Part shown: positions 10,457 to 37,244 of the stretch, piece by piece
Position numbering within the stretch: position 1 is the stretch's first letter
Layout of the letters: every line of letters begins with the position of its first letter
From: a phage
Reading direction: 5' to 3' (one strand)
Assembly (NCBI GenBank): GCA_030821775.1
Contig: GCA_030821775.1_4700.1
Length of the DNA stretch: 44,039 nt
Notes under the pieces: generated by a model
The model's input: the letters and a program-made list of their open reading frames with translations, nothing else
Database searches by the model: none
Told to the model about the DNA's origin: nothing
Position numbers and translations under genes: made by a program

Positions 10457-10472
10457 GTCCAACGCGTTGGAC
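10457..10472. repeat. Conserved palindrome, copy P1 (GTCCAACGCGTTGGAC)
   Basis: Perfect inverted repeat, member of the 8-copy TGTCCAAC-NN-GTTGGACA family; lies between the stop of gene 10473..10691 and the promoter at 10424. Confidence 0.8.
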
Positions 10473-10691
10473 TTACAGAACTGTGCTCACCTGCGCAATG
10501 TCGTGCGCCGGAAGTGACACGCCGTGGCGTTTACCGGTCGCGGGGTCACTGTAGTTCACCACATGCTGACCCTCGCGCCAGATATAGTGCAGGTTTGCGT
10601 ATGTATCCCCTTCAGAGAATGAGTGAAAAGTGTTACCGCCAAGCGTTGTGATGCCTTTCTTGCAGTGCAGGGTTACAATTTGTACTTTCAT
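10473..10691 (-). CDS. Hypothetical protein
   Basis: 72-aa ORF with ATG and AGGAGG SD. Confidence 0.5.
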   Translation of the reverse strand: MKVQIVTLHCKKGITTLGGNTFHSFSEGDTYANLHYIWREGQHVVNYSDPATGKRHGVSLPAHDIAQVSTVL

Positions 10692-10702
10692 TTAACCTCC
10701 TA

Positions 10703-11509
10703 TTAATATTCCGCGTCCTCGTCCATTTCTGGGGCTTCTACGTTCGTAGCTTCAGGTACTTCCTGCGGGACAGAAGCACCTGTGTCCAAAGGTTTGCGGT
10801 CTTCTGGAGTCGCGTCACTGTCTTTCTTCTTGGCCTTCTTCCACTCAGCATCGGCAGCGCGAGCCTCGGCGATAATGGCTTCAACATGAGAACCAGCAAC
10901 GGACAGGTTCTTACCGCGTGGTGTTTCGTTCAGCAGGTACTGACGGACAAGATGAGCAGGAATGCTGTCGATGATTCCGCGGGTCAGCTTGTCGAAGGTG
11001 ATGTGGCCTGTCATGGTTAGACCTTCTTCTTCCACCTGAGCCAGCACCAGCTTCTTGAGTTTATCAGGCATACCGCCGAAGCCTTTCCAGTTAACATACT
11101 TGAAAGTGCCATCTTCGTTCTTGCCACCCTTATCATCGCCAACCATGCTAACAGTCATGCACTCGCCGATGAAGTCATCGAAGCCACCAAGCAATTCTTT
11201 AGGGTCAACTGCATTCAGGAATTTGGTCAGCGTTGCCTTGTCACCAGACTTGAGCGGCACAGCCATCCACTGTTCCATGCGAGAACCATCCTCGTTCTTG
11301 TCACCGTCACCCATCAGGATAACCTTAACAAGAACAAAGTTAGCAGGCTTCTTCACCTCGGTAGTGTTACCTTTCTTGAAGATGTCTTGGAAGGAACCAA
11401 CGTGAATGATGCCAGAGATAACTGCCTCGTGATCACCAACTTCGGGATTCTTAAACACACCACCAGTAGCAGCAGCAACCTCAGCACCAAAATCAAAATT
11501 ACGAGCCAT
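10703..11509 (-). CDS. Putative ssDNA-binding protein (acidic C-terminal tail)
   Basis: Track ORF 10703..11557; ATG at 11509 has an AGGAGG SD. C-terminus ...EAPEMDEDAEY is acidic with a terminal aromatic residue, as in T7 gp2.5 and bacterial SSB; functional call is inference. Confidence 0.4.
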   Translation of the reverse strand: MARNFDFGAEVAAATGGVFKNPEVGDHEAVISGIIHVGSFQDIFKKGNTTEVKKPANFVLVKVILMGDGDKNEDGSRMEQWMAVPLKSGDKATLTKFLNAVDPKELLGGFDDFIGECMTVSMVGDDKGGKNEDGTFKYVNWKGFGGMPDKLKKLVLAQVEEEGLTMTGHITFDKLTRGIIDSIPAHLVRQYLLNETPRGKNLSVAGSHVEAIIAEARAADAEWKKAKKKDSDATPEDRKPLDTGASVPQEVPEATNVEAPEMDEDAEY

Positions 11510-11702
11510 TAATTTATTCCTCCTGTTGTTTGTTAGCTTTGTACTGAGCACAAGCATGTACTCACTAGAAAGCCCGATACTATATCGGGTTGTGCAAGAT
11601 GCACAAGAGGTTCAACACTTTACAATCATAGGACGTGCTTAGGATTTACGCTCACTGAGCACCTTGGATTTACTGTCTCTGACAAACCCACGTCCTATTG
11701 TT

Positions 11703-11720
11703 CTATAGTGTCACCTAATT
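11703..11720 (-). promoter_or_regulatory. SP6-type phage promoter (variant)
   Basis: Plus CTATAGTGTCACCTAATT; overlaps the stop of gene 11719..12096. Confidence 0.65.
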
Positions 11721-12183: not shown

Positions 12184-12223
12184 AAAAGGTAGAGAATTTA
12201 AGTGACACAAAGAAAGTTAACAA

Positions 12224-14797
12224 TTAGTGAGTCTCTTTCCAGCTTGCGCCAATCTTATATTCACCTGCCATCGGACAGCGCATCTTAAGATACTGACCAG
12301 CCCAAGTCATGGCGTCGGCAATGATATGCCCTGCACGGTGATAACGACGCTGGCAATGCAATACACCAGCATCAGCATCAACGCTAACGAGATTTGCAGC
12401 AGACCACATACGTCCCTCAGAATCCACATGAACACGTTTCTCCTCTGCATCGAACACTGCTTTCACAGCAGCCTTCTCTGTTTCAAATCCTTCTAAGGTG
12501 AAAGGTAGGTCATAGTTAAGATACAAGACCTCCTCTTCAGGGACTTCCATCTGTATTTCATCGTGCACGTTAGCTACACCACAAGGGTTTCCCATAGCAT
12601 CCAAGGCTACACCCTCCTTGCGCATCACTGCAAATGCCTTGACCAGTGCGTATTTCATACACAAAGAGCCAGTCATCTGGAGCAATACGTTAAGCATAGT
12701 GTGTTCTTTAAGTTCACCACCGGACATACGGATGCGACCCCAATGCCCATCAGGTGCTTGCAGGTAGCCAAACTTGTTACCTTGTGCGATAACATTCTCG
12801 CGAAGACGTGCAAGAGACGGTAGTTCAATCTCGAATCTTGCCACAACTTCCTTCATTTCATCCTCAGTGACACCGCATACTGCTGCAAGGTTAGCTATAC
12901 CAGAGCCATAGAGGAAGGCATATATAAACGTCTTCGCCATGTCACGCTTAGGAAGACCAGCCTTCATCTGGTTATGCGTATGGATGTCACCATGAAGTAC
13001 AATCTCTTGGTATTCGGGGTCATTCATGAAGTGAGACAGTACACGCAGTTCAAGACCTGCACCATCACAACCAAGGATTAGCTTGCCTTTCCCTGCTATG
13101 AATAAATCACGTAGAGGATACAAGCCACGGGCAGGAATATTAACCACGTTGCGATGACGCATACGGAACGTAGAAGTGCCAATACTAATAGCAACAGCTG
13201 GCACACGCCACTCTCCGTCATCTTTGTCAGACGTAGGCCAACATCCATACCTCGCATAGTATTGCTGCGCATTGATTCCTAGCTCCTTATTAAATGCTAC
13301 AGGTATAAGGCCGCGACACTTTCGTACACCAGCCTGCGAGGGCCACGCCCCCTTCTGATTGAAGGCTTCAACGTCACCACGGTTGAGGATCTGACCACGA
13401 CGGGATACGAGTATGTACCATGCAGCGATACCCAAGCACCAATCAGGGACTGTTTTACCTTCACGTGTGGCTCTTTCTTGCCATAAAGTGATGGACTTCT
13501 CATTTATCTTACCACTCCACGGCTTAGGTAATACACCATGTTCATCAATGTAGGCCTGTTCTGTATCATTAAACTCAACACCTCTCCATCCGAACCCATA
13601 AAGCACTTGTTTAACAGTCTCACGGTTTCCCAAGGGAATGTCTTCAAACGTGACGGGAGAGTAAGCGCCAATGTGCTTGATGCTAGGTGTGTCATTCTTG
13701 TTACCACGGAGGTGAGGGAAGTCTTTCTTGACAGTAGCAGACCAATCTCCAGACTTAGTGGTGACAGCCCAAACCGTCTGCCGATCTCCGCGCCGTTCGG
13801 CATGGATAAAAGCCTCGCTAGACAACGTGACTCCAATTCCGTGAAGTCTACTATACTCATTTGCTTTATCAACTTGCGCCTCCTTCTCTTGAGCTTTGAA
13901 TGGTTTAGACTTGATACGCATAGGCATGTGTGGACGAAAGGCTGCGACTGTCTCGTCAATCTTGGCGTCCAGTTCTTCGCATCGCGCTAACGCCTTGTCG
14001 ATGTCCAGACGGAACCCGCGTTCGGCCTGACGGCTCATCTCCAGCGCCACAATGGACTCCATGTGGAAGGCTGTCTCAATGCCCAAGCCAGTGCGTTTAT
14101 TCACGCCACGGCGTTTGTGTTCCATCCATTCCCCGTTAAAGAGCCAGAGGAACAGGTCACGACCGATTGCCACGTCCTCACGTACACGGTGAACCATGTG
14201 GTCAGTTAGTTTAGACCAGTCCTCGTTCTCCGGTTTATAGCGGCCTATACGGATGCCGTGCGCCTCAATTGAGTGAGGGGCAACGTTACCCATACCTTTG
14301 GCGTATGCTTGCGGAGGGAGGCGTCTATCGGGGTTTAACAGGCGGCTCATCACCAGCGTGTCCATGACTCGCACAGGACACAGGTCGGCACGAAGCCTGC
14401 CCTTGCCGCGCTTCTCGGTGTAGTTAAAGCCTTTCCATATAGTAGGGAATGCTTTCTCAAAGAGAAGCCCGTCATACCCTAGGAAGTTCTGTGACACGAT
14501 AGCTTCACAGTGCTTCAGGAAGTTAACACCGTCAACCAAGTCACCGTCTTGGTGGCCTTCCCATTCCTTCATACGTTCTCTTGCTTCATGGTCACGCATC
14601 TCATATGGGTCAAAGAAGAGAAACTCCTCGGTAGTAAGCAAGTCCATGCAGCAAATGATATGCACATCTTCACGGTGTCCATATCGGATAGCATCAAGGA
14701 GGCCTTTACTTTCGGCGTCCATGACGAGGATGCGGCCTTCTGCCTCCTTCTTCCAATCAATAATCTTCATACATTGCCTCTGTTTCGTAGTAGTCAT
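12224..14797 (-). CDS. DNA polymerase (family A, T7 gp5-like)
   Basis: 857-aa ORF in the expected position after primase/helicase; true start may be the ATG at 14770 (GAGG SD). Confidence 0.85.
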   Translation of the reverse strand: MTTTKQRQCMKIIDWKKEAEGRILVMDAESKGLLDAIRYGHREDVHIICCMDLLTTEEFLFFDPYEMRDHEARERMKEWEGHQDGDLVDGVNFLKHCEAIVSQNFLGYDGLLFEKAFPTIWKGFNYTEKRGKGRLRADLCPVRVMDTLVMSRLLNPDRRLPPQAYAKGMGNVAPHSIEAHGIRIGRYKPENEDWSKLTDHMVHRVREDVAIGRDLFLWLFNGEWMEHKRRGVNKRTGLGIETAFHMESIVALEMSRQAERGFRLDIDKALARCEELDAKIDETVAAFRPHMPMRIKSKPFKAQEKEAQVDKANEYSRLHGIGVTLSSEAFIHAERRGDRQTVWAVTTKSGDWSATVKKDFPHLRGNKNDTPSIKHIGAYSPVTFEDIPLGNRETVKQVLYGFGWRGVEFNDTEQAYIDEHGVLPKPWSGKINEKSITLWQERATREGKTVPDWCLGIAAWYILVSRRGQILNRGDVEAFNQKGAWPSQAGVRKCRGLIPVAFNKELGINAQQYYARYGCWPTSDKDDGEWRVPAVAISIGTSTFRMRHRNVVNIPARGLYPLRDLFIAGKGKLILGCDGAGLELRVLSHFMNDPEYQEIVLHGDIHTHNQMKAGLPKRDMAKTFIYAFLYGSGIANLAAVCGVTEDEMKEVVARFEIELPSLARLRENVIAQGNKFGYLQAPDGHWGRIRMSGGELKEHTMLNVLLQMTGSLCMKYALVKAFAVMRKEGVALDAMGNPCGVANVHDEIQMEVPEEEVLYLNYDLPFTLEGFETEKAAVKAVFDAEEKRVHVDSEGRMWSAANLVSVDADAGVLHCQRRYHRAGHIIADAMTWAGQYLKMRCPMAGEYKIGASWKETH

Positions 14798-14864: not shown

Positions 14865-14894
14865 AATGCACCTCCAATCAATATGATAAAAGGC

Positions 14895-14912
14895 TGTCCA
14901 ACACGTTGGACA
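14895..14912. repeat. Conserved palindrome, copy P2 (TGTCCAACACGTTGGACA)
   Basis: Perfect 18-bp palindrome with complementary AAGG/CCTT flanks, in the gap upstream of the DNA polymerase gene. Confidence 0.8.
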
Positions 14913-14921
14913 ACCCTTGAC

Positions 14922-15131
14922 TTACCGACTGCGTGTTACAGTTAATTTCTGGCCCATGTATTTACCTTGGTGCGGTTCCCAAGTGGCCTCCTTAATAACC
15001 TGTTCACGAGTGAGACTATTCTTTTTGGCTTCAGCCATAGTCAACTGTGCAAACAGGAAGGCTTGGTTAGTAATTTGTGCTTGCAGGTCTTCGTGACCAT
15101 CGAACATCTTAAGGCTGTGTTTATTTTGCAT
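14922..15131 (-). CDS. Hypothetical protein
   Basis: 69-aa ORF, overlaps the stop of the upstream gene. Confidence 0.4.
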   Translation of the reverse strand: MQNKHSLKMFDGHEDLQAQITNQAFLFAQLTMAEAKKNSLTREQVIKEATWEPHQGKYMGQKLTVTRSR

Positions 15132-16030: not shown

Positions 16031-16064
16031 CAATCTCCAGTTATTAATGTACTTAATAAGAGCC

Positions 16065-16082
16065 TGTCCAACATATTGGACA
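16065..16082. repeat. Conserved palindrome, copy P3 (TGTCCAACATATTGGACA)
   Basis: Perfect palindrome ~17 nt downstream of the primase/helicase stop. Confidence 0.8.
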
Positions 16083-16098
16083 AGCCCTGATAAGCACA

Positions 16099-18090
16099 CT
16101 AGAACTCCTGCTCTTCTTCGAAGTTACCTTGTTCTATAGTGTCCCCTAAATCAGCAGGCACCTCTTGCTGCTTAGGTACACCTGTATCAAAGCTCTTGGT
16201 TCGTGCTTGTGGTTCCCTCAATCTACCGGTAGCAAGGTCTCCTTTAAGCATAACCTTAGTTCCTGTGAAGATACCTTGGTCACGGTCTTTGACACATGAG
16301 ATGTACGTGGTAGTCCTTTCATCAAGCGTTTCAGCTCTTGTGTTACGCTCAATCCCCAATGCGTAAGATGCCCAGAATCCGATAGCTCCTGAGCCTCGGA
16401 AGTCAGAAAGGATAACCTCGCCACCTTCCTCGTGTTGGGTGCGGTTCCCCGCAGGACGTGTAAGGTGTGATACAAGGAATATAGTAACTGGGTGTCGGTC
16501 TTTGATAGTACCAATCCGCTTGACGCATTCATCAAGTGCACCAACCTTCCCACCATATGCTCTTTCATCTAATTTAATCCCAGTTAAGTTATCAATAAAG
16601 ATATTCTGAATCCCCATAGCTTCAAACTCTAAGCAGGTCTGCTCAATCTTCTCCATTGAGTAGTCACCTTCGAGGTCAGCTACAAAGAACTTACCCGTAT
16701 CAGCCACGTAGTCGATAGCTTCAGCCGCTTCCTCATCGGTATAGTCCAGCACCTCGCGGTAGCCATCCTCTTGCGGGTCGTTGGTTGGCGGCAACTCAAT
16801 GCGCTTATCAATCCACTTCCCGATGAATGCACGGGCAACCTTCTTGGTTGGGTCTTCTGTAGAGATAATGCCTACAGACTCGCCGTGCTCTTCGATGAGG
16901 TGCTTAACCACTTCACGAAGGAACTCAGTCTTACCTACACCGGAGCCAGCACCGACGATGATTAGCTGGTGCTTACGGATACCAAGCGTTACCTTGTTCA
17001 GCTTAGGCCAAGGCCACGACAGCCCTTCTTCTGGACGTGCCTGCTTGAGTTCGTCACGCATAGACGCAACGGACTTAATCTGGCTACCGAAGACTTCCTC
17101 AGAAGACTTGGCATTAAACCAAGCATCGACAAACTCTTTGGCCTTACCCGCCATCAAAGACTTGTTAGCATCCTTGCAACCACTTGGATACTCAAGGATG
17201 TAGGATTTGCCGGGAAACAGGCGAGCCGCTTGTTGGTTCTGCTTCTGCCCTACCTCGTCGCCATCGAATCCCCAGATAATCTTCTTGAATTGGGCGATGT
17301 GTTCACGGTTCTGCACAATCTCTTCAAGGCAAGATTCACCTTTGTTAACAGACCACACATGGTAAGGTTGCCCTTCCCACTTAGTACCCTTGGCAGAATC
17401 AAGGAGCATTTGCTGGGCTGCTAATGCATCCAGTTCACCACCCACGATAAGCAAGATATCTTTTCTTCTTCCCTTGTCCAACGTGTTGGACAGGGTATTC
17501 ATACCGAAAAGATCTTGTGTACCAAAGAGTTTACCTAGGTGTCCGAACTTAAAATCCTTCGGCAACGTCCGGCATTTTGCTCCAACAAGCACCCCCTTTT
17601 CATATCGTGGATAATAGTGACGGTTGACTCTTCCCTCTTCATCGTGTCCAACGCGCACATCGTACATTGCTGCGATGTCACCTCGAATGTGACGGGATAC
17701 AAGGTTCTTACGCTTAAGCGTGAGGAACCATTCAACATCAAGTTTCCACTCTGTTTCTTGGTCTGCCCTTTCTTGCTCATTCATAACCTCCCAACGGTCT
17801 TTCATACGCATACCACCAAGGGCGATGGCGCGTAGTTTAGGGTCGCTTATCTTCCCTTCTTTCTCCATCTCTTTGAATTGAGAAGGTGTGTATTTGATGT
17901 TGCCGGTAATAGGCAACTCGGTTATTTCGATGCCACCTTCCGGCTTATGGTAATAAGGTCTGCCATTATCATGGAAGTGACCACGGTTACAGTAGCCAGC
18001 ACCATCCTCGAATATCATAAGGTGGTTGCCTGATTTATCGTGTCCATTCTTCTGGCATTGAGGGCACGGAATGTTATTAATAATAGCCAT
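16099..18090 (-). CDS. DNA primase/helicase (T7 gp4-like)
   Basis: 663-aa ORF with an N-terminal Cys4 zinc ribbon (CPQC...C..GH) and a Walker A P-loop (GAGSGVGKTE) in the C-terminal helicase half. Confidence 0.9.
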   Translation of the reverse strand: MAIINNIPCPQCQKNGHDKSGNHLMIFEDGAGYCNRGHFHDNGRPYYHKPEGGIEITELPITGNIKYTPSQFKEMEKEGKISDPKLRAIALGGMRMKDRWEVMNEQERADQETEWKLDVEWFLTLKRKNLVSRHIRGDIAAMYDVRVGHDEEGRVNRHYYPRYEKGVLVGAKCRTLPKDFKFGHLGKLFGTQDLFGMNTLSNTLDKGRRKDILLIVGGELDALAAQQMLLDSAKGTKWEGQPYHVWSVNKGESCLEEIVQNREHIAQFKKIIWGFDGDEVGQKQNQQAARLFPGKSYILEYPSGCKDANKSLMAGKAKEFVDAWFNAKSSEEVFGSQIKSVASMRDELKQARPEEGLSWPWPKLNKVTLGIRKHQLIIVGAGSGVGKTEFLREVVKHLIEEHGESVGIISTEDPTKKVARAFIGKWIDKRIELPPTNDPQEDGYREVLDYTDEEAAEAIDYVADTGKFFVADLEGDYSMEKIEQTCLEFEAMGIQNIFIDNLTGIKLDERAYGGKVGALDECVKRIGTIKDRHPVTIFLVSHLTRPAGNRTQHEEGGEVILSDFRGSGAIGFWASYALGIERNTRAETLDERTTTYISCVKDRDQGIFTGTKVMLKGDLATGRLREPQARTKSFDTGVPKQQEVPADLGDTIEQGNFEEEQEF
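16134..16151 (-). promoter_or_regulatory. SP6-type phage promoter inside the 3' end of the primase/helicase gene
   Basis: Plus CTATAGTGTCCCCTAAAT located within the last ~17 codons of the gene. Confidence 0.7.
17475..17492. repeat. Conserved palindrome, copy P4, inside the primase/helicase coding sequence
   Basis: Perfect palindrome TGTCCAACGTGTTGGACA; encodes ...TLSNTLDKG... about 200 codons into the gene. Confidence 0.8.
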
Positions 18091-18269: not shown

Positions 18270-18287
18270 CAATAGTGTCACCTAAAT
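18270..18287 (-). promoter_or_regulatory. SP6-type phage promoter (variant, downstream member of tandem pair)
   Basis: Plus CAATAGTGTCACCTAAAT, one substitution from consensus, with palindrome P5 directly upstream. Confidence 0.65.
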
Positions 18288-18289
18288 AG

Positions 18290-18305
18290 CCCAACACGTT
18301 GGACA
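18290..18305. repeat. Conserved palindrome, copy P5 (imperfect)
   Basis: CCCAACACGTTGGACA, one-sided degenerate copy abutting the promoter at 18270. Confidence 0.6.
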
Positions 18306-18432
18306 ACCTAGGTCTTCCCTTTATGTATAAGGAAAGGAAGTAATAGGAAGTAACCCAGTGTTACCTATGTAACCTATATTACCTACTACTTCCTATTACT
18401 ACCTATGACTTTCCGTCTCCGACGGGTTGGTC

Positions 18433-18458: not shown

Positions 18459-18475
18459 TGTCCAACACGTTGGAC
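18459..18475. repeat. Conserved palindrome, copy P6
   Basis: TGTCCAACACGTTGGAC between the RNAP terminator and the promoter at 18433. Confidence 0.8.
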
Positions 18476-18502
18476 TTGTTAATAAAATGTTACAGGTAAT
18501 AG

Positions 18503-18542: not shown

Positions 18543-21161
18543 TTAAGCAAAACAGTAGTCGCTATCCATGATTTCGTTCAGGTCAAAGCTGCCTTGCTCT
18601 GGCACTTCGATGCCAGTATCAACCATCCAGCGGTCTTCGTGCTCATCAAGCAGTTTCTGCAAGGCGTTCCCTTCTGAGTACATGCCAACCATTTCTGATT
18701 TCAGTGCATGACGCAGCTTAGCGGTATTGTCTGCGTGAGTACCAAAGGAGTCGTGAATCACTGCAATACTCGTCACCCCTTCATCAACCAGATGACAGAC
18801 GGTCAGAATCAGGTGGCTTGCGTCATGACCATGAACGAAGTTAGGCGCTGCTGCTCCCATCATAGCGGTTTCATCCACTACATCAGTTTCAACTTGCAGA
18901 CTCATTTTGATGTCACCCATCAGGCAGGTGCGCACACGGAGCATCTCGGTCGCCATAATTTTCTGCTTCAGGATGAAGCCAGTTGGCAGTGGGTATTCCA
19001 ACCCTTCATTGCGCTTAGCTGCAAAGCGAGCCAACTTGCGAATCATCTGCATCGCCACTACCGGAGCCTTAACAACCTCAGAGATGGAAGGCCAGATGAG
19101 CGCCGTCATGTAGTTGTATGCTTTAGCCGGAGTAAGTTCACCGTTATCATCAAACGGGTGCACACGGTTCGCTGCGCGCCCTTCTGCCACCGCCATTTGT
19201 GCCTCTTTCTCTTCCAAATCGACGATATAGTCAATCACAGAATCACGGCAGGTGATGCGAGTAGAGCCGTAAGGCAGCGTCATTACTGGTTTCTTGGTCA
19301 GGCCACGGGTAATGCCTACGCTATCCCATGCGCTAGCCATAGCTCGAAGGTCAGAGCCGGAGAGGGTTAGGCTTCCGCTCGTGAAGGTCGTCCCTTCTTC
19401 GGCATCCATATAGAGCACATTTTTAGAAATGACCACCTGTGCAACCGCGCCGTAAATATCCTGCGGAGCGTCGGACGGCTTCAGGTTTACAGCTTTAGCG
19501 CCCACCTCATCGCGTAACATAGCGGAGTAATGCTGAATGCCGGAGCAAGAGCCATCTTGGTGGACTGGCAGGTGAGTTTCGAAATCGGCCTGCGTCCCTT
19601 TATCCAGTGCATCCAGATAGCGGGAGTATTCGAAGCACCAAGCAAGAAATTGGTACGGCTCATCCGCTTTAGCCCACTGTGTGAAAGTCAGCGGGTCGGC
19701 TGCAATGTCACGGCACATATCTTGGAAATCACCGTCTAACACGTTGGACTGACGTACGTCAAAGGTCTTCTTATCCCAACCCCACAGGTTAGCGCCCAGC
19801 ACGAGGAACCATTTAAGAGCTCCAGCGCTGTCAATCTTCCGCCCCTCTGTGAAGCGTAACAGAGATTTACCCAGGTCGTTAGACTGTGGGGACAGGGTGG
19901 AAGATTGAGCGTAAACACGGCTGCGGCTGTCCATCACGTAGACGAAGTAGATGGATTCAAAGGCGCTATATTTGCGAGCCTGTCCAATCATGCGAACCAC
20001 GGCGGCAGACTTGGAGCCGCGCTTTGTTTCGGCGGTGTATAGTCGCGCACACTCCCCTTTCCAGTTAATGAACGCCTGCCATTGCTCTTCTGATAGCATT
20101 TCTTTCAATTCACGACCCCGAAGATGTTGGAACTCAACCGGAACAGGGTTAGCAGGCTTGTTTTCCTTGTCAATTAGTGGCTTAAAGGACGGCACACCAT
20201 AGCCCAAATCAAGGCGGATGACGTCTTCAGCTACCGCTAAAACCTCTTTGTTAACCTGCCATTTGGTGTTTTGTAAGGCGTTAATAGCCTTGTACACCTT
20301 AGGCATTTGCTTAACAGTAAGTTTGCGAACATGCTCACGGTCGCCCTTAACCAGACGCACACGACTAGCCACCTTCTCAGTATGGAAGCCACCATTAAAC
20401 GGGGTTTTCCAAGGACGAGGAGGAACAACGCAAGGAGCATAGGCTGGGGCCAGTTGTGCTACGTGCTCTTTAAAGGCTGCAATCCATTGGCCTACAGTTT
20501 CGGAGGTTTGCAGGTAATAAATAGTTTTACCGCCAAATGAGCGCATAGCGCGAACGAACACAGGCTCACCGTTGTAGAATACGCTAGCTTCTAGTATTTC
20601 CAGCAGGGTAGTACCAATCTGCAATTGTGTATCTTTAGGCCATGCCTCCCAGCGGTCAAAGTCAGCGTCTTTAGCGGCTACAGACTTCTCAGCCACTACA
20701 GCTACATTGTGAGCGTGACGGTATGACTTGGTGCGGCTAGCCTTAAGCGATTTCTTCACTTTCTCGAAGTATTTCGCGGCGTGGCCTTCCAGCTTGCTGA
20801 AGCGCACTTGGTCTTCGATGCGCTCGGCAATGCTCATAGAAATGGCCTGCAATGTTACATCAGTGTTCAGCATATCCATAACTACCTTCATGGTAATATA
20901 GGCTGCCACCTCGTTTTCTACACACTGTAAGAAGGCTAGGGCACGAGGAGCGCGGCCTTTCTTGCCTTCGTATTCTTCTTTGTAAGCCTGAATGCCTTCA
21001 GCCATAGGCGCGATTAATTCAGACAGCAGGCGGCGATTCCATGCCGTATCTGATTCATTACCCGATGCTATTTGGCGCTGTTGGTCTGCCTCAAAGCGAC
21101 GGATCCCGCCATTAAACATTTCTTCTTCAAGCTGAAGCTGGATAGCGTGTAAGTCCTGCAT
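18543..21161 (-). CDS. Single-subunit DNA-dependent RNA polymerase, SP6-type
   Basis: 872-aa ORF with AGGAG SD; N-terminus [32 protein letters not shown]... and overall sequence match my recollection of SP6 RNAP almost residue for residue; consistent with the SP6-type promoters across the genome. Confidence 0.95.
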
Positions 21162-21224
21162 TTTGTGTACTCCTAGTTAAAGAAATTTTAATAGGTGACA
21201 CCTAAGAAGATGCCACCGATAAAA

Positions 21225-22097
21225 TCACTTAGTTAACTCTTCTACTGCCTCAGAGATTAAAGCCCATGCCTCGTGGCCTTCACCATAGCCCAGCTTAACC
21301 AGTTCGCGGCGCGCCTTGTTAACTGCGGTCTTCTTCGTTGCCTCCTCAGCGCTCAAACCTAGGCGAGCGTAGAAACAGGACGATTTGAACTGCGGCAGCA
21401 TAGGCGCGGCGCTTTTCTTGGTTTCCCGTGCGCTGGTCAGTTCTGCTATGCGGCCGTTTGCTGCGGTAAGTTGCTCGGTCAGCGTCTTTATTTGCGCCAA
21501 CAGGCTAGCCATAGCCGCGTTCTCGGTGTTCTCAGTGTTATCCAGCTTAGGCGCTGCTACCTCGGTAGTCGCTGGTGCATCTTCCCACGGTGCGGATTCG
21601 TCGCCCTCCGGTGCTATATCCTGCGGTACGCTTTGCAATGCCTCAGATTCTACAGGAGCGGCCTTCTCAGCTGGTTTTGTGGCTTCGGCTTGTGATTGGT
21701 TGGCTTCAGCCTTCACAGGCTTAGACGGCGCCACAAGCGCGTTAACGGCCTTGGTGTCTAATTCGCCGTTAGCGGCAAGTTCGGCGGCCTTATCCATGAT
21801 TGCTCTATCATCGGCAAAAGGGATAAGGGCAAGCATGGCACGCATGGCAACGCCTTTAAAACGCTCATCACCATCAAAGCAACGCGCTACGTTCATCAGG
21901 TTGTAGCATTGTGCTTTCTTGATACCGAACTCAGCTTCTACATAAGCCAGGAACTCACGCTGATTCTCAAAATCACCGCGTAACTCATTCAGGAGGGAAC
22001 CTACTTTGAGGTAAGAGGCTCCTATTGTTTCTAAGTGTGCTTTGATTTCAGCAGTTGCAGCTTCACGGACAGAAACGATGGTGTTTTCAGTAGTCAT
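21225..22097 (-). CDS. Early protein of unknown function (290 aa)
   Basis: N-terminal globular region, central Ala/Pro/Glu-rich low-complexity linker, C-terminal helical region; just upstream of RNAP and downstream of a phage promoter; no SD. Confidence 0.55.
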   Translation of the reverse strand: MTTENTIVSVREAATAEIKAHLETIGASYLKVGSLLNELRGDFENQREFLAYVEAEFGIKKAQCYNLMNVARCFDGDERFKGVAMRAMLALIPFADDRAIMDKAAELAANGELDTKAVNALVAPSKPVKAEANQSQAEATKPAEKAAPVESEALQSVPQDIAPEGDESAPWEDAPATTEVAAPKLDNTENTENAAMASLLAQIKTLTEQLTAANGRIAELTSARETKKSAAPMLPQFKSSCFYARLGLSAEEATKKTAVNKARRELVKLGYGEGHEAWALISEAVEELTK

Positions 22098-22620: not shown

Positions 22621-22769
22621 GATTTAATCCTCATTAGTTAGTTAGGTTACATTATAGGAGACTCAAGAGAATCTCCTAGATTTAACCTATCCCGACTAAG
22701 AAGCTACCTATCCAAATCGTTAAAGAGCTTGGTTTGCGCCTTGATAGGCCAGCTTATGCTGGCTGCTAT

Positions 22770-22949
22770 CTATTTGTAAACACGTAACAAGTGCAAGGAT
22801 TGCTTAAAGCCGTGCTCTTTGATATATGCAATAGTTCTTATATGACAAGTAAAAGCAGGCTCCCATTTATCAGACCCTCGCTTCTTACCATATATCACCT
22901 CCATATCTTCTAAGATATCGTACTTTAATCTATCAGTAAGTTTACGCAT
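22770..22949 (-). CDS. Small early protein (59 aa)
   Basis: Hand-translated ORF MRKLTDRLKYDILEDMEVIYGKKRGSDKWEPAFTCHIRTIAYIKEHGFKQSLHLLRVYK; weak SD. Confidence 0.35.
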   Translation of the reverse strand: MRKLTDRLKYDILEDMEVIYGKKRGSDKWEPAFTCHIRTIAYIKEHGFKQSLHLLRVYK

Positions 22950-23063
22950 GATAGTTTACCTTATCAGTAAGCCTATCAAGACACAAACCAAATTATTAAA
23001 GAGCGTTGCCTCTCGGCTATGTGCTTAATGTAACCTTGTATGCCGTGGCTGTCAATAGTTAAT

Positions 23064-23467: not shown

Positions 23468-23610
23468 AGCTAATTCCTCATTCAATAAGTAATTAACCAC
23501 GGCATACACAGGTTACACTAAGCAAATTGTTAAAGAGCAATGTAGGCGCTAGTCTCTTCGTAGGCCTTACTAGCTGGCTACTAGGTGCCTCAGCACCGCC
23601 TACGTGATGC

Positions 23611-23639: not shown

Positions 23640-23650
23640 CACTCTTTATC

Positions 23651-23668
23651 GTCCAACATGTTAGACAA
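23651..23668. repeat. Conserved palindrome, copy P7 (imperfect)
   Basis: GTCCAACATGTTAGACAA, one mismatch in the right arm, just upstream of the -35 of the putative host promoter. Confidence 0.6.
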
Positions 23669-24601: not shown

Positions 24602-26314
24602 CTACTTTGCAACCCAACCTTGAGCAGATGTACCAGATTCTTTAATGTACAATGTACTACCACCAGACCCATTAATACCAGTTGCCAAAGAACCGACAGG
24701 TGCACCTACACCTAAAGTTGTAGGATTGCCATTTAGTCCATAAACAATCACCGTACTAGAACCGACTCCTTGGTTATTCTGAGGTGCTTGCGTACCATAG
24801 CAATCATTGCCAATTAGTTTAATATTGGAGCAAGAAGAAGTAACACAAATACCAAGGCTTGGCTTGTTAGGGCTTTCTCCATCTACTCCAATATTACCTT
24901 CTACTAGGATGTTGTTAGCTCCTGTGTCTATACTAATGAAGTGTCTACCTGCTTCAGCGGTAGATACTTCCTTCATATTATTAGCTTTAATCACTAGACC
25001 GCTAGCCTTGCAGTTTACATGAATACCATATTGCCCTAATTTAGAGAAGATATTACGACTAAGTATACCTTCTCCTGATAAACCAGTACCAATGAATGTA
25101 GTAGCATCAGACTCACCTAACCAAATCCCACTACCTCTTCCGTTTTCCCAAGTATTACCTTCGATGTGGTATTTTGTCCCAAAGCGTAAACCGATTAACC
25201 CTAAGCCACCAGAGCCTGTATTACCTTTTACAATTAAATTCTTACACCACCTTGCATCTACACCATAGGATACATCCCCTGTGAGGATCATAGTATTATT
25301 AGAAATTTCAATATGGTCATGCCAAATGTCACTAATATCGGTAAAAGGCCAAGATGGTGCATCAATTAGCACTGGTGCTCTTACGCCATCAAAAGTACAA
25401 CCTACAACACTACCTTGTCGAGTCCCTTGCGGTTTAGTTTGAGAGGAGACAGGTGTAACATGAACGCCTCTTGCATTAGAGTTTCTAAAGGTGCAACCAC
25501 GTACTGTCCAGTTTTTCCAGTTAAATACACGTACACCTGCAAAGAGAGCACCATCTGTAGTGCAATTCAAGATACGGATATTGTTGCCCTGTACACCATA
25601 AGCTGAGGCGTGATTTCCGATTAGTGCACCATAACCTCCAAACCCGGATTCTGGGTTTGGACCAGCATAGCAATTCTCCACCAGCATACCACTAGACTGC
25701 ACATAGTGACCAACTGTAATAAGTCCTGGGTCTAACTGTATAGCCTCTGAGAAGCTACGACTGCCTGTATTCTTAAACCCTAGGAATTTACAATCACGAA
25801 TAACTACGTTGTTCCAATCTGCTAAATCTATGGCGTGGTAGTCCACTACATTGTTAACTGTTATGCCTTCAAACTTCAAATCATTATTACTAGTAGATGC
25901 AAATACTACAAAAGGTGTATCCCCTTTAGTGTGACCATTGCCTTCATAGACACCTCCACTGACTGTTACATTACTAGCTTGCCTTTGTGATAATCTGAAT
26001 AGCGTATCTCCTGTTTCGTAGTCACGTACAAATGTTACACCTTTAGCAACCTTGAAGTGTGTATTAGCAAATATCTCAACAGTACCACTGAGTTTATATT
26101 CGCCAGCTTTAGTGACTGATACAGTACCACCGCCTAGCAATCTGACCGCATTGAATGCAGCTTGAAGGGCTTGCCTGTTGTCATTAGAAGAGGGATTAAC
26201 TCCAAAATCCGCAACATCTATTGTATCCGATAGTTTATCAGATAGCAGGCGCTCAATAGTACCTGTTAGTTTACTCTTGTACTTCACCAAGTAAGCACTT
26301 AATCTTTGAAGCAT
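24602..26314 (-). CDS. Tailspike 2: beta-helix polysaccharide depolymerase
   Basis: 570-aa ORF with AAGGAGG SD; N-terminal pectate-lyase-3-like motif (DVADFGVNP...), many Gly/Asn-rich repeat turns typical of right-handed parallel beta-helix tailspikes; terminal position as in SP6/K1-5. Confidence 0.7.
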   Translation of the reverse strand: MLQRLSAYLVKYKSKLTGTIERLLSDKLSDTIDVADFGVNPSSNDNRQALQAAFNAVRLLGGGTVSVTKAGEYKLSGTVEIFANTHFKVAKGVTFVRDYETGDTLFRLSQRQASNVTVSGGVYEGNGHTKGDTPFVVFASTSNNDLKFEGITVNNVVDYHAIDLADWNNVVIRDCKFLGFKNTGSRSFSEAIQLDPGLITVGHYVQSSGMLVENCYAGPNPESGFGGYGALIGNHASAYGVQGNNIRILNCTTDGALFAGVRVFNWKNWTVRGCTFRNSNARGVHVTPVSSQTKPQGTRQGSVVGCTFDGVRAPVLIDAPSWPFTDISDIWHDHIEISNNTMILTGDVSYGVDARWCKNLIVKGNTGSGGLGLIGLRFGTKYHIEGNTWENGRGSGIWLGESDATTFIGTGLSGEGILSRNIFSKLGQYGIHVNCKASGLVIKANNMKEVSTAEAGRHFISIDTGANNILVEGNIGVDGESPNKPSLGICVTSSCSNIKLIGNDCYGTQAPQNNQGVGSSTVIVYGLNGNPTTLGVGAPVGSLATGINGSGGSTLYIKESGTSAQGWVAK

Positions 26315-26399
26315 GTAACCTCCTTTTCTGAAAGGCTACCACCATGATAACCTTTAAGAAAAGTTGCGTGAAAAGCAGTGCTTACGCACTGCCTGTTGC

Positions 26400-29315: not shown

Positions 29316-29600
29316 TTAGCCCTCTGCTGGAGTGACAGGTGACTCCACCATAGTAGTTGCATACCAAGGGTCAGTTGGTTCACTACCATGTGCAATAGCG
29401 ATGTACAAGGTGTTTGCTTTCTCTACAGCAACCATGGCACCTTTCTGCTTACCAGATAGGTGTTTAATGTTGATAGGATGATTTTTCTTCTGAAGGTCTT
29501 CTTCAGCAACAACAGGCATGGGGATTGCCGTTGCAATAGTTTGTACTGCCTTTACTCGAAAAGCCTGACCAGTAACAGAACCTGTACCATATGTAGCCAT
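29316..29600 (-). CDS. Small protein, paralog B of a tandem pair
   Basis: 94-aa ORF with GGAGG SD; shares the block SGKQKGAMV...IAIA with the adjacent ORF 29616..29891. Confidence 0.55.
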   Translation of the reverse strand: MATYGTGSVTGQAFRVKAVQTIATAIPMPVVAEEDLQKKNHPINIKHLSGKQKGAMVAVEKANTLYIAIAHGSEPTDPWYATTMVESPVTPAEG

Positions 29601-36300: not shown

Positions 36301-37193
36301 CCCTTCTCCTTGGCGCTCATACGGATATTGGCGTCACCTTTCAGCTTCTCTGTATGCTGGAAGATACCCATATCCAAGTCAACTTCACGAGCCATAAGCG
36401 GTTCATAGTTACGAGCAGCCATATACGCGTCATACTCCATCGCCTCACGGACGGCTTTAGATGCAGACACGTCGAACTCATCAGCACCACGAATGACAGT
36501 ATCAAGGTCATCTACGGTTGCACGAGGTGTGTCTGTGTCAACACCACGGACACGCTGGCGAGTAGCCATCCCAATAGTGCCACCCATCACCATGCCGAAC
36601 CCAGCGGCAGCTAGTACGTCATCAGCTCCACGCTGGTAGTCACCCTGAGCCAGAACTGCTTCAAGTGAAGCGTTCTCAGCACCAGCCAATGCAGCCGTCT
36701 TGATAACTCGTCCTAACCGACCAACCTTGAATGCACCAGCAACCGGAGCGGCAGCGAGTGAAGCCGCCCAGCCAACAGGGTCGAAGATACCAGCGGCAAG
36801 CTGTGCAGCGAATCCAGTAAAACCATTACGGGCAAGAATCTCGTTACGGTCCTTGTCTGCCTGAGCGTTAGACATACGGAACTGTAACTCTTCTGGAGAT
36901 TGTGCGCCTTTAACAATCTCTTGCGCTATCTCATAACCGTGGAGTTTTGACAAATCTTCTACGGTTGACTCTGGAACAGCGTAACCATCTTGTGGTGTGA
37001 ACTCAGCAGTGCTACGTTCATACGCACGTTGACCACCATAGAGCATCCATTCGTTCTCTAAGGCAGTTTGCATTACCTTATCCTTCGCTCGTTGTTCCTC
37101 CAACTTACGCTCGGCCTCGGCAATCTGAGAGAAGGTAGGAGGTAACTGCCTTTGAGTTACACCTACCCAGCTTTGGCTAGTCAAATCAGCCAT
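33393..37193 (-). CDS. Internal virion protein, large (T7 gp16-like ejection protein)
   Basis: 1266-aa ORF with AAGGAGG SD, last and largest of the internal virion protein trio. Confidence 0.8.
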   Translation of the reverse strand: MADLTSQSWVGVTQRQLPPTFSQIAEAERKLEEQRAKDKVMQTALENEWMLYGGQRAYERSTAEFTPQDGYAVPESTVEDLSKLHGYEIAQEIVKGAQSPEELQFRMSNAQADKDRNEILARNGFTGFAAQLAAGIFDPVGWAASLAAAPVAGAFKVGRLGRVIKTAALAGAENASLEAVLAQGDYQRGADDVLAAAGFGMVMGGTIGMATRQRVRGVDTDTPRATVDDLDTVIRGADEFDVSASKAVREAMEYDAYMAARNYEPLMAREVDLDMGIFQHTEKLKGDANIRMSAKEKGRLKADIRQAESELAALQETRTAARAEHAAKKGAARNKVEALDTKVELQALARRFDAPIADATRRLEELQAKLRAVENVPAAKAELKRFSSLTREQQIKELGLEVPSRKVDMHSAVKEAVAAIKAEQAAKKTPTQKFDEAAQAEVEAKAAPDDSLSAARVKGSEIQGEQFYLSDKMEDLMDDLAREAYQSDVKPVSTFGLGSVSSVILNSKNPVFRGLGLRLLENAQGGAYQGKTASILSDVYNNLIRTADRNRYNDGFSQFLKDNNLRAIDYLNPAVTRDFNNQVYTAIVKGIPEDTPKGVKLAAEGMADKLKKALEIRKQAGEAGFENVQSARDYMPVIYDGIKITEAVNRLGSSEAVIALLSKGYQTGKYKLGKKSADALAKVQYIRASDSTLSSRVAFDRVISQQQQAQLIADLKSAGVPDSIIDNFIEGTELAEMAESVSNRAKASMGINTQAEYGGMKVQDLLNTNVATLVENYGKEAAGGAALAAMGFPTRQSVFNAIDAAERAGRNMAGSDAKAIKQLRAEADMLRDSVRLMYGNTIDADPNAGIVRGTRRLREVTGLLRLGQMGFAQIPELARAITKMGVGTVLKSVPATKFLRSRAGRKGGTAQGELLEPELREMEELVGYIGEDNWLTGWNTRHDEFGETADNLNKLSQIVDNGLAMGSRVNTWLSGFKAIQGGSEKIVARSINKRLKEHLSGGRKLPQADLDEIGLNEATMKRLQRHFDENPAYAEYNGEKVRMMNFDVMEPDLRETVGIAVRRMSGRLIQRNFIGDEGIWMNKWWGKALTQFKSFSIVSIEKQLIHDLRGDKIQAAQILAWSSLLGYASYATQMQMQAIGREDRDKFLKEKFDTNNIAMGVFNKLPQVAGFGLAGDTLATFGLMPDALMQAPGRMGFQQQGFGELVAGAGVIGDAVDFSKALVKYANGDDDVSTRQLVDKVRRLVPLANTIGIGQMTKASVDLLED

Positions 37194-37226
37194 ATTACCT
37201 CCTTAGTTAATGCCATTCATAAAGGC

Positions 37227-37244
37227 TGTCCAACATGTTAGACA
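37227..37244. repeat. Conserved palindrome, copy P8, between two internal virion protein genes
   Basis: TGTCCAACATGTTAGACA (one mismatch) with complementary AAGG/CCTT flanks, in the 66-bp gap between the two large internal virion genes. Confidence 0.7.

Follow-up and report, generated by a model that had tools for sequence, protein, structure and literature searches.

A repeated palindrome in an SP6-like phage as a putative operator of an early phage protein and the apex of RNase III-type hairpins

The palindrome TGTCCAAC-NN-GTTGGACA, repeated along a 44,039-nucleotide stretch of phage DNA (GCA_030821775.1, contig GCA_030821775.1_4700.1; the whole stretch is termed the window below), is most likely the binding site of an uncharacterised phage protein with a ParB/KorB-like fold, as judged by comparing related genomes and predicted structures. 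The element probably serves at two levels, as an operator for the phage's own early protein and, at some copies, as the tip of an RNase III-type hairpin. The core would be a double-stranded operator for a dimer of a 290-aa early protein, each helix-turn-helix of which would read one 7-8 bp arm. Residue 66 of the putative recognition helix would read arm base pair 6, with Asn66 corresponding to A·T (GTCCAAC) and Lys66 or Arg66 to C·G (GTCTCAC). About ten sites are scattered across the part of the genome that holds the early and DNA-metabolism genes, and since their layout resembles the KorB operator network of RK2, promoter modulation and genome organisation are proposed as functions: the protein would modulate initiation at the adjacent promoters and, at the remaining sites, mark or organise the phage genome. 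Once transcribed, the palindrome necessarily folds, and at three intergenic copies (37227, 16065 and 14895) it forms the apical stem of a sense hairpin with T7 RNase III architecture and frame. Host RNase III would be expected to cut these hairpins on the 3' side of the internal loop, between …CCUUUAU and GA…, so that the upstream mRNA would keep a protective hairpin at its 3' end.

T7 and SP6 are textbook cases whose gene control is thought to consist almost wholly of promoters, terminators, RNase III and lysozyme, and we know of no site-specific phage DNA-binding regulator in this picture. If the proposed reading is true, a conserved early protein with some ten operators would represent a missing layer in T7-supergroup biology and would give a function to a widespread 'hypothetical' gene, while the apparent one-residue/one-base-pair switch (N66 with A·T, K/R66 with C·G) would provide a compact system of reader-site co-evolution. 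A DNA operator overlapping an RNA processing hairpin would mean that one sequence is selected at two levels, which would bear on the interpretation of conserved phage 'RNA structures', and neither the sites nor the gene could be treated as dispensable spacers in SP6- and K1-5-type phages employed in therapy and synthetic biology.

Distribution and conservation of the palindrome

Ten matches to the palindrome at up to three mismatches were detected in the window (Table 1), against 0.24 expected from 100 shuffles, none of which reached ten, so that the recurrence lies beyond chance, as an earlier note on this DNA had claimed. That note had described a family of eight perfect 18-bp palindromes, variable only in the central dinucleotide. 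The family does exist, and all eight listed copies are present, although three starts were 1-2 nt off and two intragenic copies, 6570 and the degenerate 19733, had been missed. Only two of the ten (14895 and 17475) are perfect; the other eight carry one to three arm mismatches, which contradicts the supposed constancy of the arms, and it is this arm variation that proved the most informative feature of the family. The centre is purine-pyrimidine in every copy (AC, GT, AT or GC).

Several positional claims were borne out. Seven of the eight copies listed earlier are intergenic, the exception being 17475, and four lie within about 20 bp upstream of a promoter: three phage promoters of the SP6 type (at 0, 8 and 14 bp) and the main early host-type sigma-70 promoter (at 10 bp). 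Copies 14895 and 37227 do carry the AAGG/CCTT flanks, with an equivalent extension also at 16065, and the half-site near 24024 is a lone GTGTTGGACA at 24025-24034 with no partner arm, located within a CTTAGTG repeat block. The proposed search of SP6/K1-5-like relatives showed that the positions are conserved, with same-position copies in SP6, K1-5, POP72, PM116, Era103 and many metagenomic relatives; orthologous sites span Zindervirus, Vectrevirus, Axomammavirus, Acadevirus, Eracentumvirus and the unassigned VLCpiA2b. Rfam at gathering thresholds gave no match anywhere in the window. No description of the element came up in full-text searches on SP6/K1-5, RNase III, palindromes and ParB/KorB, a scope outside which the 2004 SP6 genome papers fall; those papers (Dobbins 2004, Scholl 2004) may list some of the hairpins as putative terminators or RNase III sites.

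Table 1. Copies of the palindrome and the gene of the candidate binding protein in the window
Feature	Position	Strand	Context
Core palindrome, sense TGTCTAACATGTTGGACA	37227..37244	-	Apex of T7-type RNase III-like hairpin 37203-37268; between two large internal-virion-protein genes
Core palindrome	16065..16082	-	Apex of hairpin 16040-16107, downstream of primase/helicase gene; ~50 nt downstream of phage promoter 16132-16151
Perfect core palindrome	14895..14912	-	Apex of hairpin 14870-14937; just downstream of small gene 14922-15131, upstream of DNA polymerase gene 12224-14797
Core copy TGTCCAACGTGTTGGGCT	18288..18305	-	Abuts phage promoter 18268-18287
Bare core copy	18459..18476	-	8 bp upstream of phage promoter 18431-18450
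Bare core copy	10456..10473	-	14 bp upstream of phage promoter 10422-10441
Left-end copy TGTCTAACATGTTGGACG	23650..23667	-	~540 bp from inferred genome end
Perfect copy, read L-S-N-T-L-D-K	17475..17492	-	Inside primase/helicase gene 16099-18090
Degenerate copy, 3 mismatches	19733..19750	-	Inside RNA polymerase gene 18543-21161
Copy read E-S-N-M-L-D-N	6570..6587	-	Inside DUF3310/nucleotide-kinase-like gene 6334-6819; conserved in SP6 (17751)
Candidate binding protein, 290 aa, early gene	21225..22097	-	Immediately upstream of RNA polymerase gene

At 18288, the 5' part of the promoter contributes to an 8-bp basal stem ACCUAGGU/AUUUAGGU in the read-through RNA (hairpin 18280-18313), and the site has an orthologue in SP6 and relatives (group 25735). 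Copy 18459 sits just past the early terminator that trails the RNA polymerase gene; its position is conserved in 14 sequences without flank complementarity (group 25564), and its hairpin alone reaches only -6.9 kcal/mol. A second hairpin (10427-10452) comes after copy 10456 and pairs the promoter with an 'anti-promoter' sequence, the two changing jointly in POP72, L011 and L020 (group 33567). The strongest early sigma-70 promoter (TTGACA-17-CATAAT, 23611-23639) has its -35 element 10 bp downstream of the left-end copy. Nearly all relatives examined possess a copy at this position, which in PM116 is the sole one with a 2-nt centre.

In the intragenic copies, synonymous change is suppressed. Third-codon-position entropy at 17475 averages 0.28 over the six core codons versus 1.07 over 41 flanking codons (16 unique orthologues). 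The position of 19733 is conserved in POP72, L009, L010, L018 and L065, all of which read S-N-V-L-D, and a distant relative (L207) apparently carries a differing core type, the second type described below, at the equivalent place of its RNA polymerase gene, as located from flanking sequence.

RNase III-type hairpins at three copies

The genes of the window lie on the minus strand, and on this sense strand copies 37227, 16065 and 14895 cap hairpins with the frame ACUCAAGG…CCUUUAUGA. In these three, an asymmetric internal loop separates a lower stem of 8-10 bp from an upper stem of 12-13 bp, longer than the 11 bp required of a T7-type site; the other seven of the ten copies lack this combination. 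A covariance model was built solely from seven T7 RNase III sites, the coordinates of which we take to be those of Dunn and Studier 1983; the sequences at these coordinates fold into the expected hairpins. The model matched 37203-37268 over its full length (45.9 bits, E 4e-7), with orthologues matched in all eight genomes. With filters off, 14870-14937 (19.7 bits, E 0.064) and 16040-16107 (17.7 bits, E 0.18) gave marginal matches, ranking third and sixth in the window, and the six best matches in the window were all on the sense strand.

Folding showed the same strand preference, with z-scores of -4 to -6.8 for the three sense hairpins and -0.9 to -3.4 for their antisense counterparts. The 37227 hairpin reached -24 kcal/mol (z -5.3; antisense z -1.4), the 16065 hairpin -31.5 kcal/mol (z -6.8; antisense -17.8 kcal/mol), and the 14895 hairpin a z of -4.0 versus -0.9 for the antisense. 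Across phages, compensatory changes were seen at 8 of 22 pairs of the 37227 hairpin and at 9 of 24 pairs of the 14895 hairpin, for instance AAGGGU/GCCUUU versus GUGACU/GGUCAC, and the 16065 flank covaries as well (AGGGCU/GGCUCU in the window, AGGGUU/AACUCU in SP6). The RNase III-type structure of the three copies is well supported by this comparison, from which we infer that cleavage would take place.

The hairpins share with the T7 RNase III sites (R0.3, R0.5, R1.1, R4.7, R18.5) the order of lower stem, asymmetric internal loop and upper stem, a nearly identical frame, and an intergenic sense-strand location, frequently beside phage promoters. They differ in the apical stem-loop, which is variable in T7, whereas here it is an invariant 18-nt palindrome and 2-3 bp longer; moreover, seven of the ten copies lack the frame. 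The bare copies form hairpins of 6-8 bp with -6 to -7 kcal/mol and would not be RNase III sites, because the enzyme needs an 11-bp helix from cleavage site to loop (PMC1540722). The earlier suggestion of RNase III-like processing thus holds well for three copies but not for the short bare hairpins.

Core types and arm variation

While the hairpin flanks covary between phages, the core is invariant. Its sequence is switched genome-wide between GTCCAAC/GTTGGAC (first type) and GTCTCAC/GTGAGAC (second type), the arms of a whole genome carrying either CA/TG or TC/GA; the mosaic K66 phages K1-5, PST_H2 and SE29 tolerate one to four first-type sites. The helicase copy of second-type genomes is a hybrid, TGTCTCAC-GT-GTTAGACA, because the full second-type palindrome would give an in-frame TGA stop. 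A change of the centre from 2 to 3 nt is concerted within PM116, and likewise within L207. The variant GTCTAAC is distributed 13:14 between the arms of bare copies, as expected for a symmetric duplex site, and 4:0 in RNase III-type copies, solely on the arm where a G·U pair is retained, although this left/right difference is not significant (Fisher p 0.11). As a palindromic duplex with two 7-8 bp arms and several copies on the replicon, the element has the form of a ParB/KorB-type operator.

The candidate reader

Residues 10-122 of the 290-aa protein are predicted to form an all-helical domain of ParB/KorB-like fold, containing a putative helix-turn-helix (helix 46-57, turn, helix 61-74) that includes N66; a protein with this predicted fold is therefore encoded on the same replicon as the sites. 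An acidic disordered linker is predicted to follow, then a long helix (190-230), which from its length is probably a coiled coil, and a C-terminal domain predicted to be J-domain-like. The family comprises 339 representatives at 50% identity and is typically encoded beside the RNA polymerase gene. The window protein has no Pfam match, ParB and helix-turn-helix models included, and its distant homologues gave sub-threshold DUF3102 and DnaJ matches only. Neither a ParBc/CTPase N-terminal domain nor the GxxRxxA box was found in the protein; the fold-matched domain begins at about residue 10, too close to the start of the protein for an N-terminal domain to precede it. No ParA-type ATPase appeared in the annotations of SP6, K1-5, PST_H2, POP72, PM116, Era103 and VLCpiA2b or among ten window proteins scanned, and ten neighbouring small proteins scanned with Pfam and PHROG yielded no DNA- or RNA-binding candidate.

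Residue 66 and core type are correlated over about 11 lineages, distant ones included. N66 accompanies GTCCAAC in the window/SP6 clade, POP72, PM116, VLCpiA2b and the distant L208, and K66 or R66 accompanies GTCTCAC in the K1-5 clade, Era103 and the distant L207 (six sites) and L206. TC half-sites number 72 in K66 genomes versus none among 224 half-sites in N66 or H66 genomes. The left-hand sites are co-inherited with the genes of the 290-aa protein and the RNA polymerase, so linkage alone does not tell whether the co-varying factor is this protein or a neighbouring gene; a search for K1-5 proteins unusually close to their Era103 counterparts found none. The specificity contacts of KorB reportedly lie partly outside the helix-turn-helix (Khare et al. 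2004), which is why a contact between residue 66 and the base pair is something that we infer. Among the roles put forward earlier, a phage regulator is the best supported for the core, given the co-variation of core type with a protein residue, while nothing specific was found in favour of replication or packaging.

Alternative explanations

It is unlikely that the copies are purely RNA elements, i.e., sense hairpins serving as RNase III sites, 3'-exonuclease barriers or targets of an RNA-binding protein or endoribonuclease, with the core kept for RNA recognition and the link to the 290-aa protein reflecting shared ancestry only. The three T7-type frames with their strong covariation and sense-strand bias fit such elements, as do the centre of 2 or 3 nt, which is trivial for a hairpin loop, and the coupling of 18288 and 10456 to promoter-containing hairpins, as at T7 R3.8, R6.5 and R13. 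However, the bare copies fall below the RNase III minimum, their C·A-creating variants are as common as the G·U-creating ones (14 versus 13), and the left-end copy precedes the first early promoter. T7 RNase III sites, in addition, need no invariant apex (mean column identity 64%, variable loops), the purine-pyrimidine centre rule and the genome-wide type switch have no RNA-level explanation, and in separate lineages core type tracks a residue of a protein that has a DNA-binding fold. That the hairpins terminate or pause the phage or host RNA polymerase is scarcely credible. According to PMC11347151, which cites the 2004 genome papers, SP6 has seven phage-polymerase terminators, several of which may coincide with the hairpins, and U-containing sequence (UUUAU) comes after the extended copies. 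Yet t5, the sole SP6 terminator to have been tested, is another hairpin, GC-rich and with a U-run behind it; the SP6 9382 copy is followed by UCUCAU and the bare copies by A-rich sequence; no sense-strand copy passed a hairpin-plus-T-run scan or displayed the stable hairpin with immediate U-run of class I phage RNA polymerase terminators.

A DNA site read by a different factor, either the phage RNA polymerase or a host dimeric repressor of TetR/EilR/SmvR type, is quite improbable. Four copies abut promoters, and promoter and core are loosely correlated, second-type genomes going mostly with ATTTACC/ACT promoters and first-type genomes with ATTTAGG; the correlation is broken in PST_H2, the second-type sites of which adjoin ATTTAGG promoters, and in SP6, where an ATTTACG promoter stands beside a first-type site of the GTCTAAC variant. 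Changed promoter bases show no correspondence to changed palindrome bases either, and the polymerase was rejected as the reader. The EilR operator eilO, GTTGGACA-CG-TGTCCAAC, is built of the same 8-mers (PMC6127294), but in everted order, with the half-sites opposite relative to the dyad; a fixed dimer would be unable to read this order, EilR/TetR operators were discarded, and the sharing of 8-mers is probably coincidence. Against host factors in general, core type is independent of host, the window with its K5-lyase tailspike being of the first type and K1-5 of the second, and for the same reason host range or differences in host RNase III were dismissed as the source of the two types. That no sequence-specific reader exists at all, the copies being products of gene conversion or templated mutation, or else recombination boundaries, origin elements or cruciform hotspots, is very improbable. 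Concerted evolution within genomes, mosaic genomes with mixed types and the location of copies at gene-module boundaries speak for it, together with the two copies and two promoters that follow the RNA polymerase gene, the position of the primary origin in T7. Under homogenisation alone, however, lineages should drift apart in sequence, whereas the same two cores persist across genera at only 45-75% protein identity; efficient recombination and stable cruciforms would need arms longer than 7-8 bp, and the helicase copy shifts to the second type only within the limits of the reading frame, which points to selection on sequence.

Some lesser candidates were also set aside. A NusB/boxA likeness (GCUCUUA after 16065) is not conserved in relatives, mimicry of a sigma-70 -35 by TTGGACA has no consistent -10 partner, and primase recognition sites (GTC) lack conserved flanks. 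Long-range pairing between copies is possible on paper, but local hairpins should form first.

Likeness to KorB and ParB systems

The KorB operator OB of RK2 occurs in about a dozen copies, some abutting promoters and others distant or intragenic. The operator proposed for the 290-aa protein is likewise a palindrome repeated over a replicon of ~40-60 kb and partly promoter-abutting, with other copies remote from promoters or within genes. The systems differ in that the phage protein lacks the ParB/CTPase N-terminal domain and detectable sequence membership and bears a probable coiled coil and a J-like domain, KorA and the IncC/ParA partner are absent from the phage, OB (TTTAGCSGCTAAA) is another sequence than the phage site, and the replicon here is a lytic T7-supergroup phage in which binding is putative. 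Repression by KorB reaches 1.5 kb away (PMC11790492). A bolder extension, possible but tentative, is that SP6-like phages and other lytic phages of the T7 supergroup possess an unrecognised genome-wide KorB-like regulatory and organising network, with about ten parS-like sites, an early protein joining a ParB/KorB-fold DNA-binding domain to a J-like domain, repeated Asn to Lys/Arg re-tuning and some operators reused as RNase III hairpin tips. The sites of the early protein in such a network would include the early host promoter and phage promoters, its J-like domain might recruit host DnaK, and re-tuning would proceed by a single recognition-helix change that tracks A·T to C·G, all sites of the genome following.

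With the ParB-parS systems (Spo0J/ParB; F-plasmid SopB-sopC) the likeness extends to sequence, the parS arm GTTCCAC resembling GTCTCAC and GTCCAAC (PMC5961200). The phage sites have 2-3 extra bp at the dyad, are dispersed rather than clustered near the origin, and belong to a lytic phage with no obvious need of partition, which has neither ParA nor the CTPase domain, unlike its Streptomyces analogues, which do have a ParA-type ATPase. These Streptomyces-type parA cassettes (L185, L190) carry arrays of GTCTCAC-NN-GTGAGAC beside a protein that is like the phage protein only in the helix-turn-helix and has R at the covarying position. When the phage and Streptomyces families were compared profile to profile, only 27 columns aligned, over the helix-turn-helix (probability 28%, E 6e-4), a match suggestive rather than conclusive as to homology.

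A further distant homologue of the 290-aa protein (L209) has D at the covarying position; its genome is without the GTC..AC family and carries three TAGTAGCTACTA palindromes.

Palindrome copies and their conservation

The palindrome family is real and richer than the alternative roles listed in the earlier note, and the sequence points to a ParB/KorB-like operator network combined with T7-type RNase III sites. To our knowledge, no such combination has been described for lytic phages of the T7 supergroup, the SP6 genome papers of 2004 lying outside this comparison.

The window represents an SP6-like podophage (subfamily Molineuxvirinae), presented as the reverse complement and circularly permuted, with all genes on the minus strand (termed "sense") and the physical left end near 24200. 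The nearest record is Salmonella phage PST_H2 (~89% identity in the replication region). The phage is a mosaic, in which the tailspike (24602-26314) is 96% identical to the K5 lyase of K1-5, several early proteins (genes ~22700-23500) are ~95% identical to K1-5 proteins and other modules are SP6/PST_H2-like.

The search pattern TGTCCAAC-NN-GTTGGACA found only two perfect matches in the window, rising to ten at ≤3 mismatches with 0.24 expected, so the earlier claim that only the centre varies does not hold. The list of copies proposed there was essentially right, apart from offsets of 1-2 nt and two missed intragenic copies. A core copy is located 0, 8 or 14 bp upstream of three of the 12 SP6-type promoters found in the window, and the left-end copy is located 10 bp upstream of the -35 element of the best sigma-70 promoter.

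Features located in the window
Feature	Position	Strand	Detail
Core copy	6570		≤3 mismatches
Core copy	10456		≤3 mismatches
Core copy	14895		perfect match; framed
Core copy	16065		≤3 mismatches; framed
Core copy	17475		perfect match
Core copy	18288		≤3 mismatches
Core copy	18459		≤3 mismatches
Core copy	19733		≤3 mismatches
Core copy	23650		≤3 mismatches
Core copy	37227		≤3 mismatches; framed
T7-site model match	37203-37268	minus	45.9 bits, E 4e-7
T7-site model match	14870-14937	minus	filters off, E 0.064
T7-site model match	16040-16107	minus	filters off, E 0.18
Palindrome-free intergenic hairpin	22638-22695	minus	T7-site model, range of three: 18.5-19.9 bits, E 0.06-0.12
Palindrome-free intergenic hairpin	21175-21236	minus	same range
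Palindrome-free intergenic hairpin	26313-26370	minus	same range
290-aa early protein gene	21225-22097	minus	candidate reader
HNH endonuclease gene	9552-9989

Core copies occupy the same positions in SP6 (9 copies), PST_H2, POP72 and VLCpiA2b, and a modified core does so in K1-5, PM116 and Era103. In the viral-contig scan, 36 of roughly 120 loci were SP6-like and the rest were unrelated, mostly with a single match; the multi-copy core occurred only in SP6-like contigs, mostly of about 44 kb. In total, 138 core instances were grouped by genome position: the left end, within the RNA polymerase gene and twice after it; within and after the primase/helicase gene and upstream of the DNA polymerase gene; and before the exonuclease cluster, within the kinase-like gene and between two large internal-virion-protein genes.

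More than 10 copies of a short repeat, (C)CTTAGTG, are found at 23780-24040 (minus strand), with the inferred terminal repeat to one side and the first early promoter to the other, and the "half-site" of the earlier note (24025-34) sits amid them. The same repeat adjoins the left-end palindrome in K1-5, PST_H2 and POP72.

RNase III-type hairpins

Three of the copies (37227, 16065 and 14895) are enclosed in a frame, ACUCAAGG-core-(G)CCUUUAUGA, with an outer stem. Folding of T7 at the site coordinates reportedly published by Dunn and Studier in 1983 yields the frame ACUCAAGG…CCUUUAUGA likewise, at R0.3, R0.5, R1.1, R4.7 and R18.5. A covariance model trained on seven T7 sites alone matched the frame around 37227, with an orthologous site in 7/7 other genomes, and with filters off the top six window matches were all on the sense strand. 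Half of these six lack the palindrome; two of them belong to the early region and the third adjoins the tailspike gene. One of the early pair (21175-21236), immediately upstream of the RNA polymerase gene, is located where T7 has its R1 site.

Cross-phage alignments of the framed hairpins revealed compensatory changes in 9/24 and 8/22 pairs, all in the frame and lower stem, with core columns nearly invariant. The sense RNA is far more stable than shuffled or antisense RNA (z -5.3, -6.8 and -4.0 for 37227, 16065 and 14895, against -1.4, -3.4 and -0.9 for antisense). In T7-type sites, an internal loop limits cleavage to one bond, so that a protective 3' hairpin remains (PMC1540722), and by analogy the framed copies would be cleaved once and retain such a hairpin.

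A second T7-model site scoring 46-49 bits is located after the DNA polymerase gene in SP6 (12217-12276), K1-5 (12502-12561) and PST_H2 (29468-29526), its apex GGUCACUUACGAGUGGCC being T7-like and not the palindrome. This extra site is absent from the window, where a promoter and then a different small hairpin are found instead.

Two phage promoters are each preceded by sequence that can pair with the promoter, giving an 8-11 bp hairpin in read-through RNA (10427-10452 and 18280-18313), a build shared with T7 R3.8, R6.5 and R13. This "anti-promoter" changes together with the promoter specificity bases in POP72 and in the loci L011 and L020. Seven SP6 terminators from the 2004 genome papers are cited in a later publication (PMC11347151), and some of them may correspond to the palindrome hairpins.

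Selection beyond RNA structure

RNA is not the whole story, as several observations argue. The seven bare copies without a frame form hairpins of 6-8 bp (about -6 to -7 kcal/mol), below the 11-bp helix needed by RNase III (PMC1540722), and their 16 arm bases are conserved as much as those of framed copies. T7's own RNase III sites do not have an invariant apex, so RNase III does not need one. The three coding-region copies all read S-N-x-L-D, and the six core codons of the primase/helicase copy have a mean third-position entropy of 0.28, whereas the 41 codons flanking them average 1.07 and just 2% of those reach so low a value.

A second version of the core emerged when palindromes were counted de novo, the GT-centred forms being TGTCCAAC-GT-GTTGGACA for the first type and TGTCTCAC-GT-GTGAGACA for the second. 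K1-5 and Era103 carry GTCTCAC-NN-GTGAGAC at orthologous positions, and in PM116 five sites read GTCCAAC-NNN-GTTGGAC, their centre being 3 nt long, and the left-end site has a centre of 2 nt. In a set of about 60 SP6-like loci each genome has an almost pure single type, with the mosaics K1-5, PST_H2, SE29 and CrRp3 as exceptions. As at least five sites per genome share the same double compensatory state, independent events cannot explain them, pointing to either a trans-acting sequence-specific reader or gene conversion. The helicase copy of second-type genomes is the hybrid GTCTCAC/GTTAGAC, where a complete second-type palindrome would place a TGA stop in frame; selection there therefore acts on sequence, not on pairing alone. 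The concerted change from a 2- to a 3-bp centre in PM116 and the distant relative L207 is what an altered dimer geometry would produce.

The variant GTCTAAC is divided 13:14 between the left and right arms of bare copies, as expected of a symmetric duplex site, and half of these variants would be C·A mismatches in sense RNA. In the three framed groups it occurs only in the arm that keeps G·U (4:0); the contrast between bare and framed copies has the predicted direction and is not significant (p 0.11). The centre dinucleotide of the window copies is purine-pyrimidine without exception, a strand-symmetric property.

At 7022-7075 of Era103, two second-type palindromes 35 bp apart flank ATTAACCACCCAG. 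This is the 5' half of the promoter consensus of that phage, which stands complete at 14290, as though a copy of the palindrome had been inserted into, or duplicated with, a promoter.

A candidate reader protein

The second-type scan of viral contigs also matched two high-GC Streptomyces-type contigs, in which 3-4 copies of GTCTCAC-(GC/AT)-GTGAGAC are arrayed around a parA-like gene (AAA_31/CbiA in Pfam, E 3e-18) and an adjacent gene for a 320-334 aa protein. The sole similarity of this protein to the window is a helix-turn-helix-like stretch of 21-25 residues, which aligns with the 290-aa early protein at residues 49-73 (E 2e-4 and 8e-4 in pairwise comparison; E 6e-4 at 28% probability between profiles).

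The gene of the 290-aa protein immediately precedes the RNA polymerase gene. Its family has 339 representatives at 50% identity, and in those of the longer contigs that were examined it likewise directly precedes a T7-type RNA polymerase gene. The protein matched no Pfam family and falls in a PHROG without an assigned function, its closest 120 homologues are all "hypothetical", and its distant homologues give sub-threshold matches to DUF3102 and DnaJ. AlphaFold2 confidently predicted an all-helical N-terminal domain (residues 10-122, pLDDT 85-91), followed by an acidic linker without order, a long helix (190-230) and a small domain at the C-terminus that is J-like. The ParB/KorB-like fold of this model is not family membership; Raf1 is an equally good structural match, the protein lacks a CTPase domain, and ParA was absent from the annotations of seven relatives and from the ten window proteins scanned.

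Two other proteins of unknown function, encoded on the minus strand at 10703-11557 and 9995-10399, have strongly acidic C-terminal tails whose last residue is aromatic (…EMDEDAEY and …SEEEEF), a signature of the type found in T7 gp2.5. By this likeness, the 284-aa protein may be the single-stranded-DNA-binding protein of the phage.

Co-variation of residue 66 with core type

Residue 66 (…FGIKKAQCY-N-LMNVAR…), which falls within helix two of the putative helix-turn-helix, tracks the core type. It is N in all first-type genomes, K in the K1-5 clade, independently in Era103 and also in the mosaics, and H in SP6, whose sites are mostly of the GTCTAAC variant.

Half-site counts by residue 66 of the 290-aa protein
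Residue 66	GTCCAAC	GTCTAAC	GTCTCAC
N	163	31	0
H	18	12	0
K	16 (mosaics only)	22	72

Distant family members agree with this rule: L207, with K, carries GTCTCAC-NNN-GTGAGAC six times over 11.5 kb, L208 (N) a perfect GTCCAAC-AC-GTTGGAC on a 2.5-kb contig and L206 (R) GTCTCAC-GT-GTGGGAC, and both Streptomyces proteins have R at the covarying position. With lineages taken as independent, five N with A·T stand against six K/R with C·G without exception (Fisher exact ~0.002, hand calculation). In protein-DNA recognition generally, Asn goes with adenine and Lys/Arg with guanine, and the pairing at residue 66 would fit these rules. Since the gene of the 290-aa protein, the RNA polymerase gene and the left-hand sites are linked, linkage could still account for the correlation inside the SP6 group, although the distant lineages and Streptomyces cassettes argue against it.

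L209, a distant T7-like contig, encodes a homologue with Asp at the covarying position. GTC..AC palindromes were not found in it; instead, a 12-bp palindrome TAGTAGCTACTA occurs three times (2102, 6641 and 14023), the copies at 2102 and 14023 having conserved flanks in common. It could be a further specificity class or a promoter element.

Proposed mechanism

The early 290-aa protein would dimerise, as the predicted long helix, probably a coiled coil, suggests, and the dimer is a candidate for binding the palindromes on duplex DNA. Initiation is probably modulated from the sites that adjoin three phage promoters and the sigma-70 promoter of the early region, and the others, intragenic ones included, may be further anchoring points. 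Separately, transcripts across the three framed sites are probably cut by RNase III. The proposed sites are reminiscent of KorB operators, which act both beside promoters and up to 1.5 kb away (PMC11790492). The operator of the TetR-family repressor EilR, AAAGTTGGACACGTGTCCAACTTT, contains the two 8-mers of the first-type palindrome in everted order (PMC6127294), a likeness judged to be coincidence.
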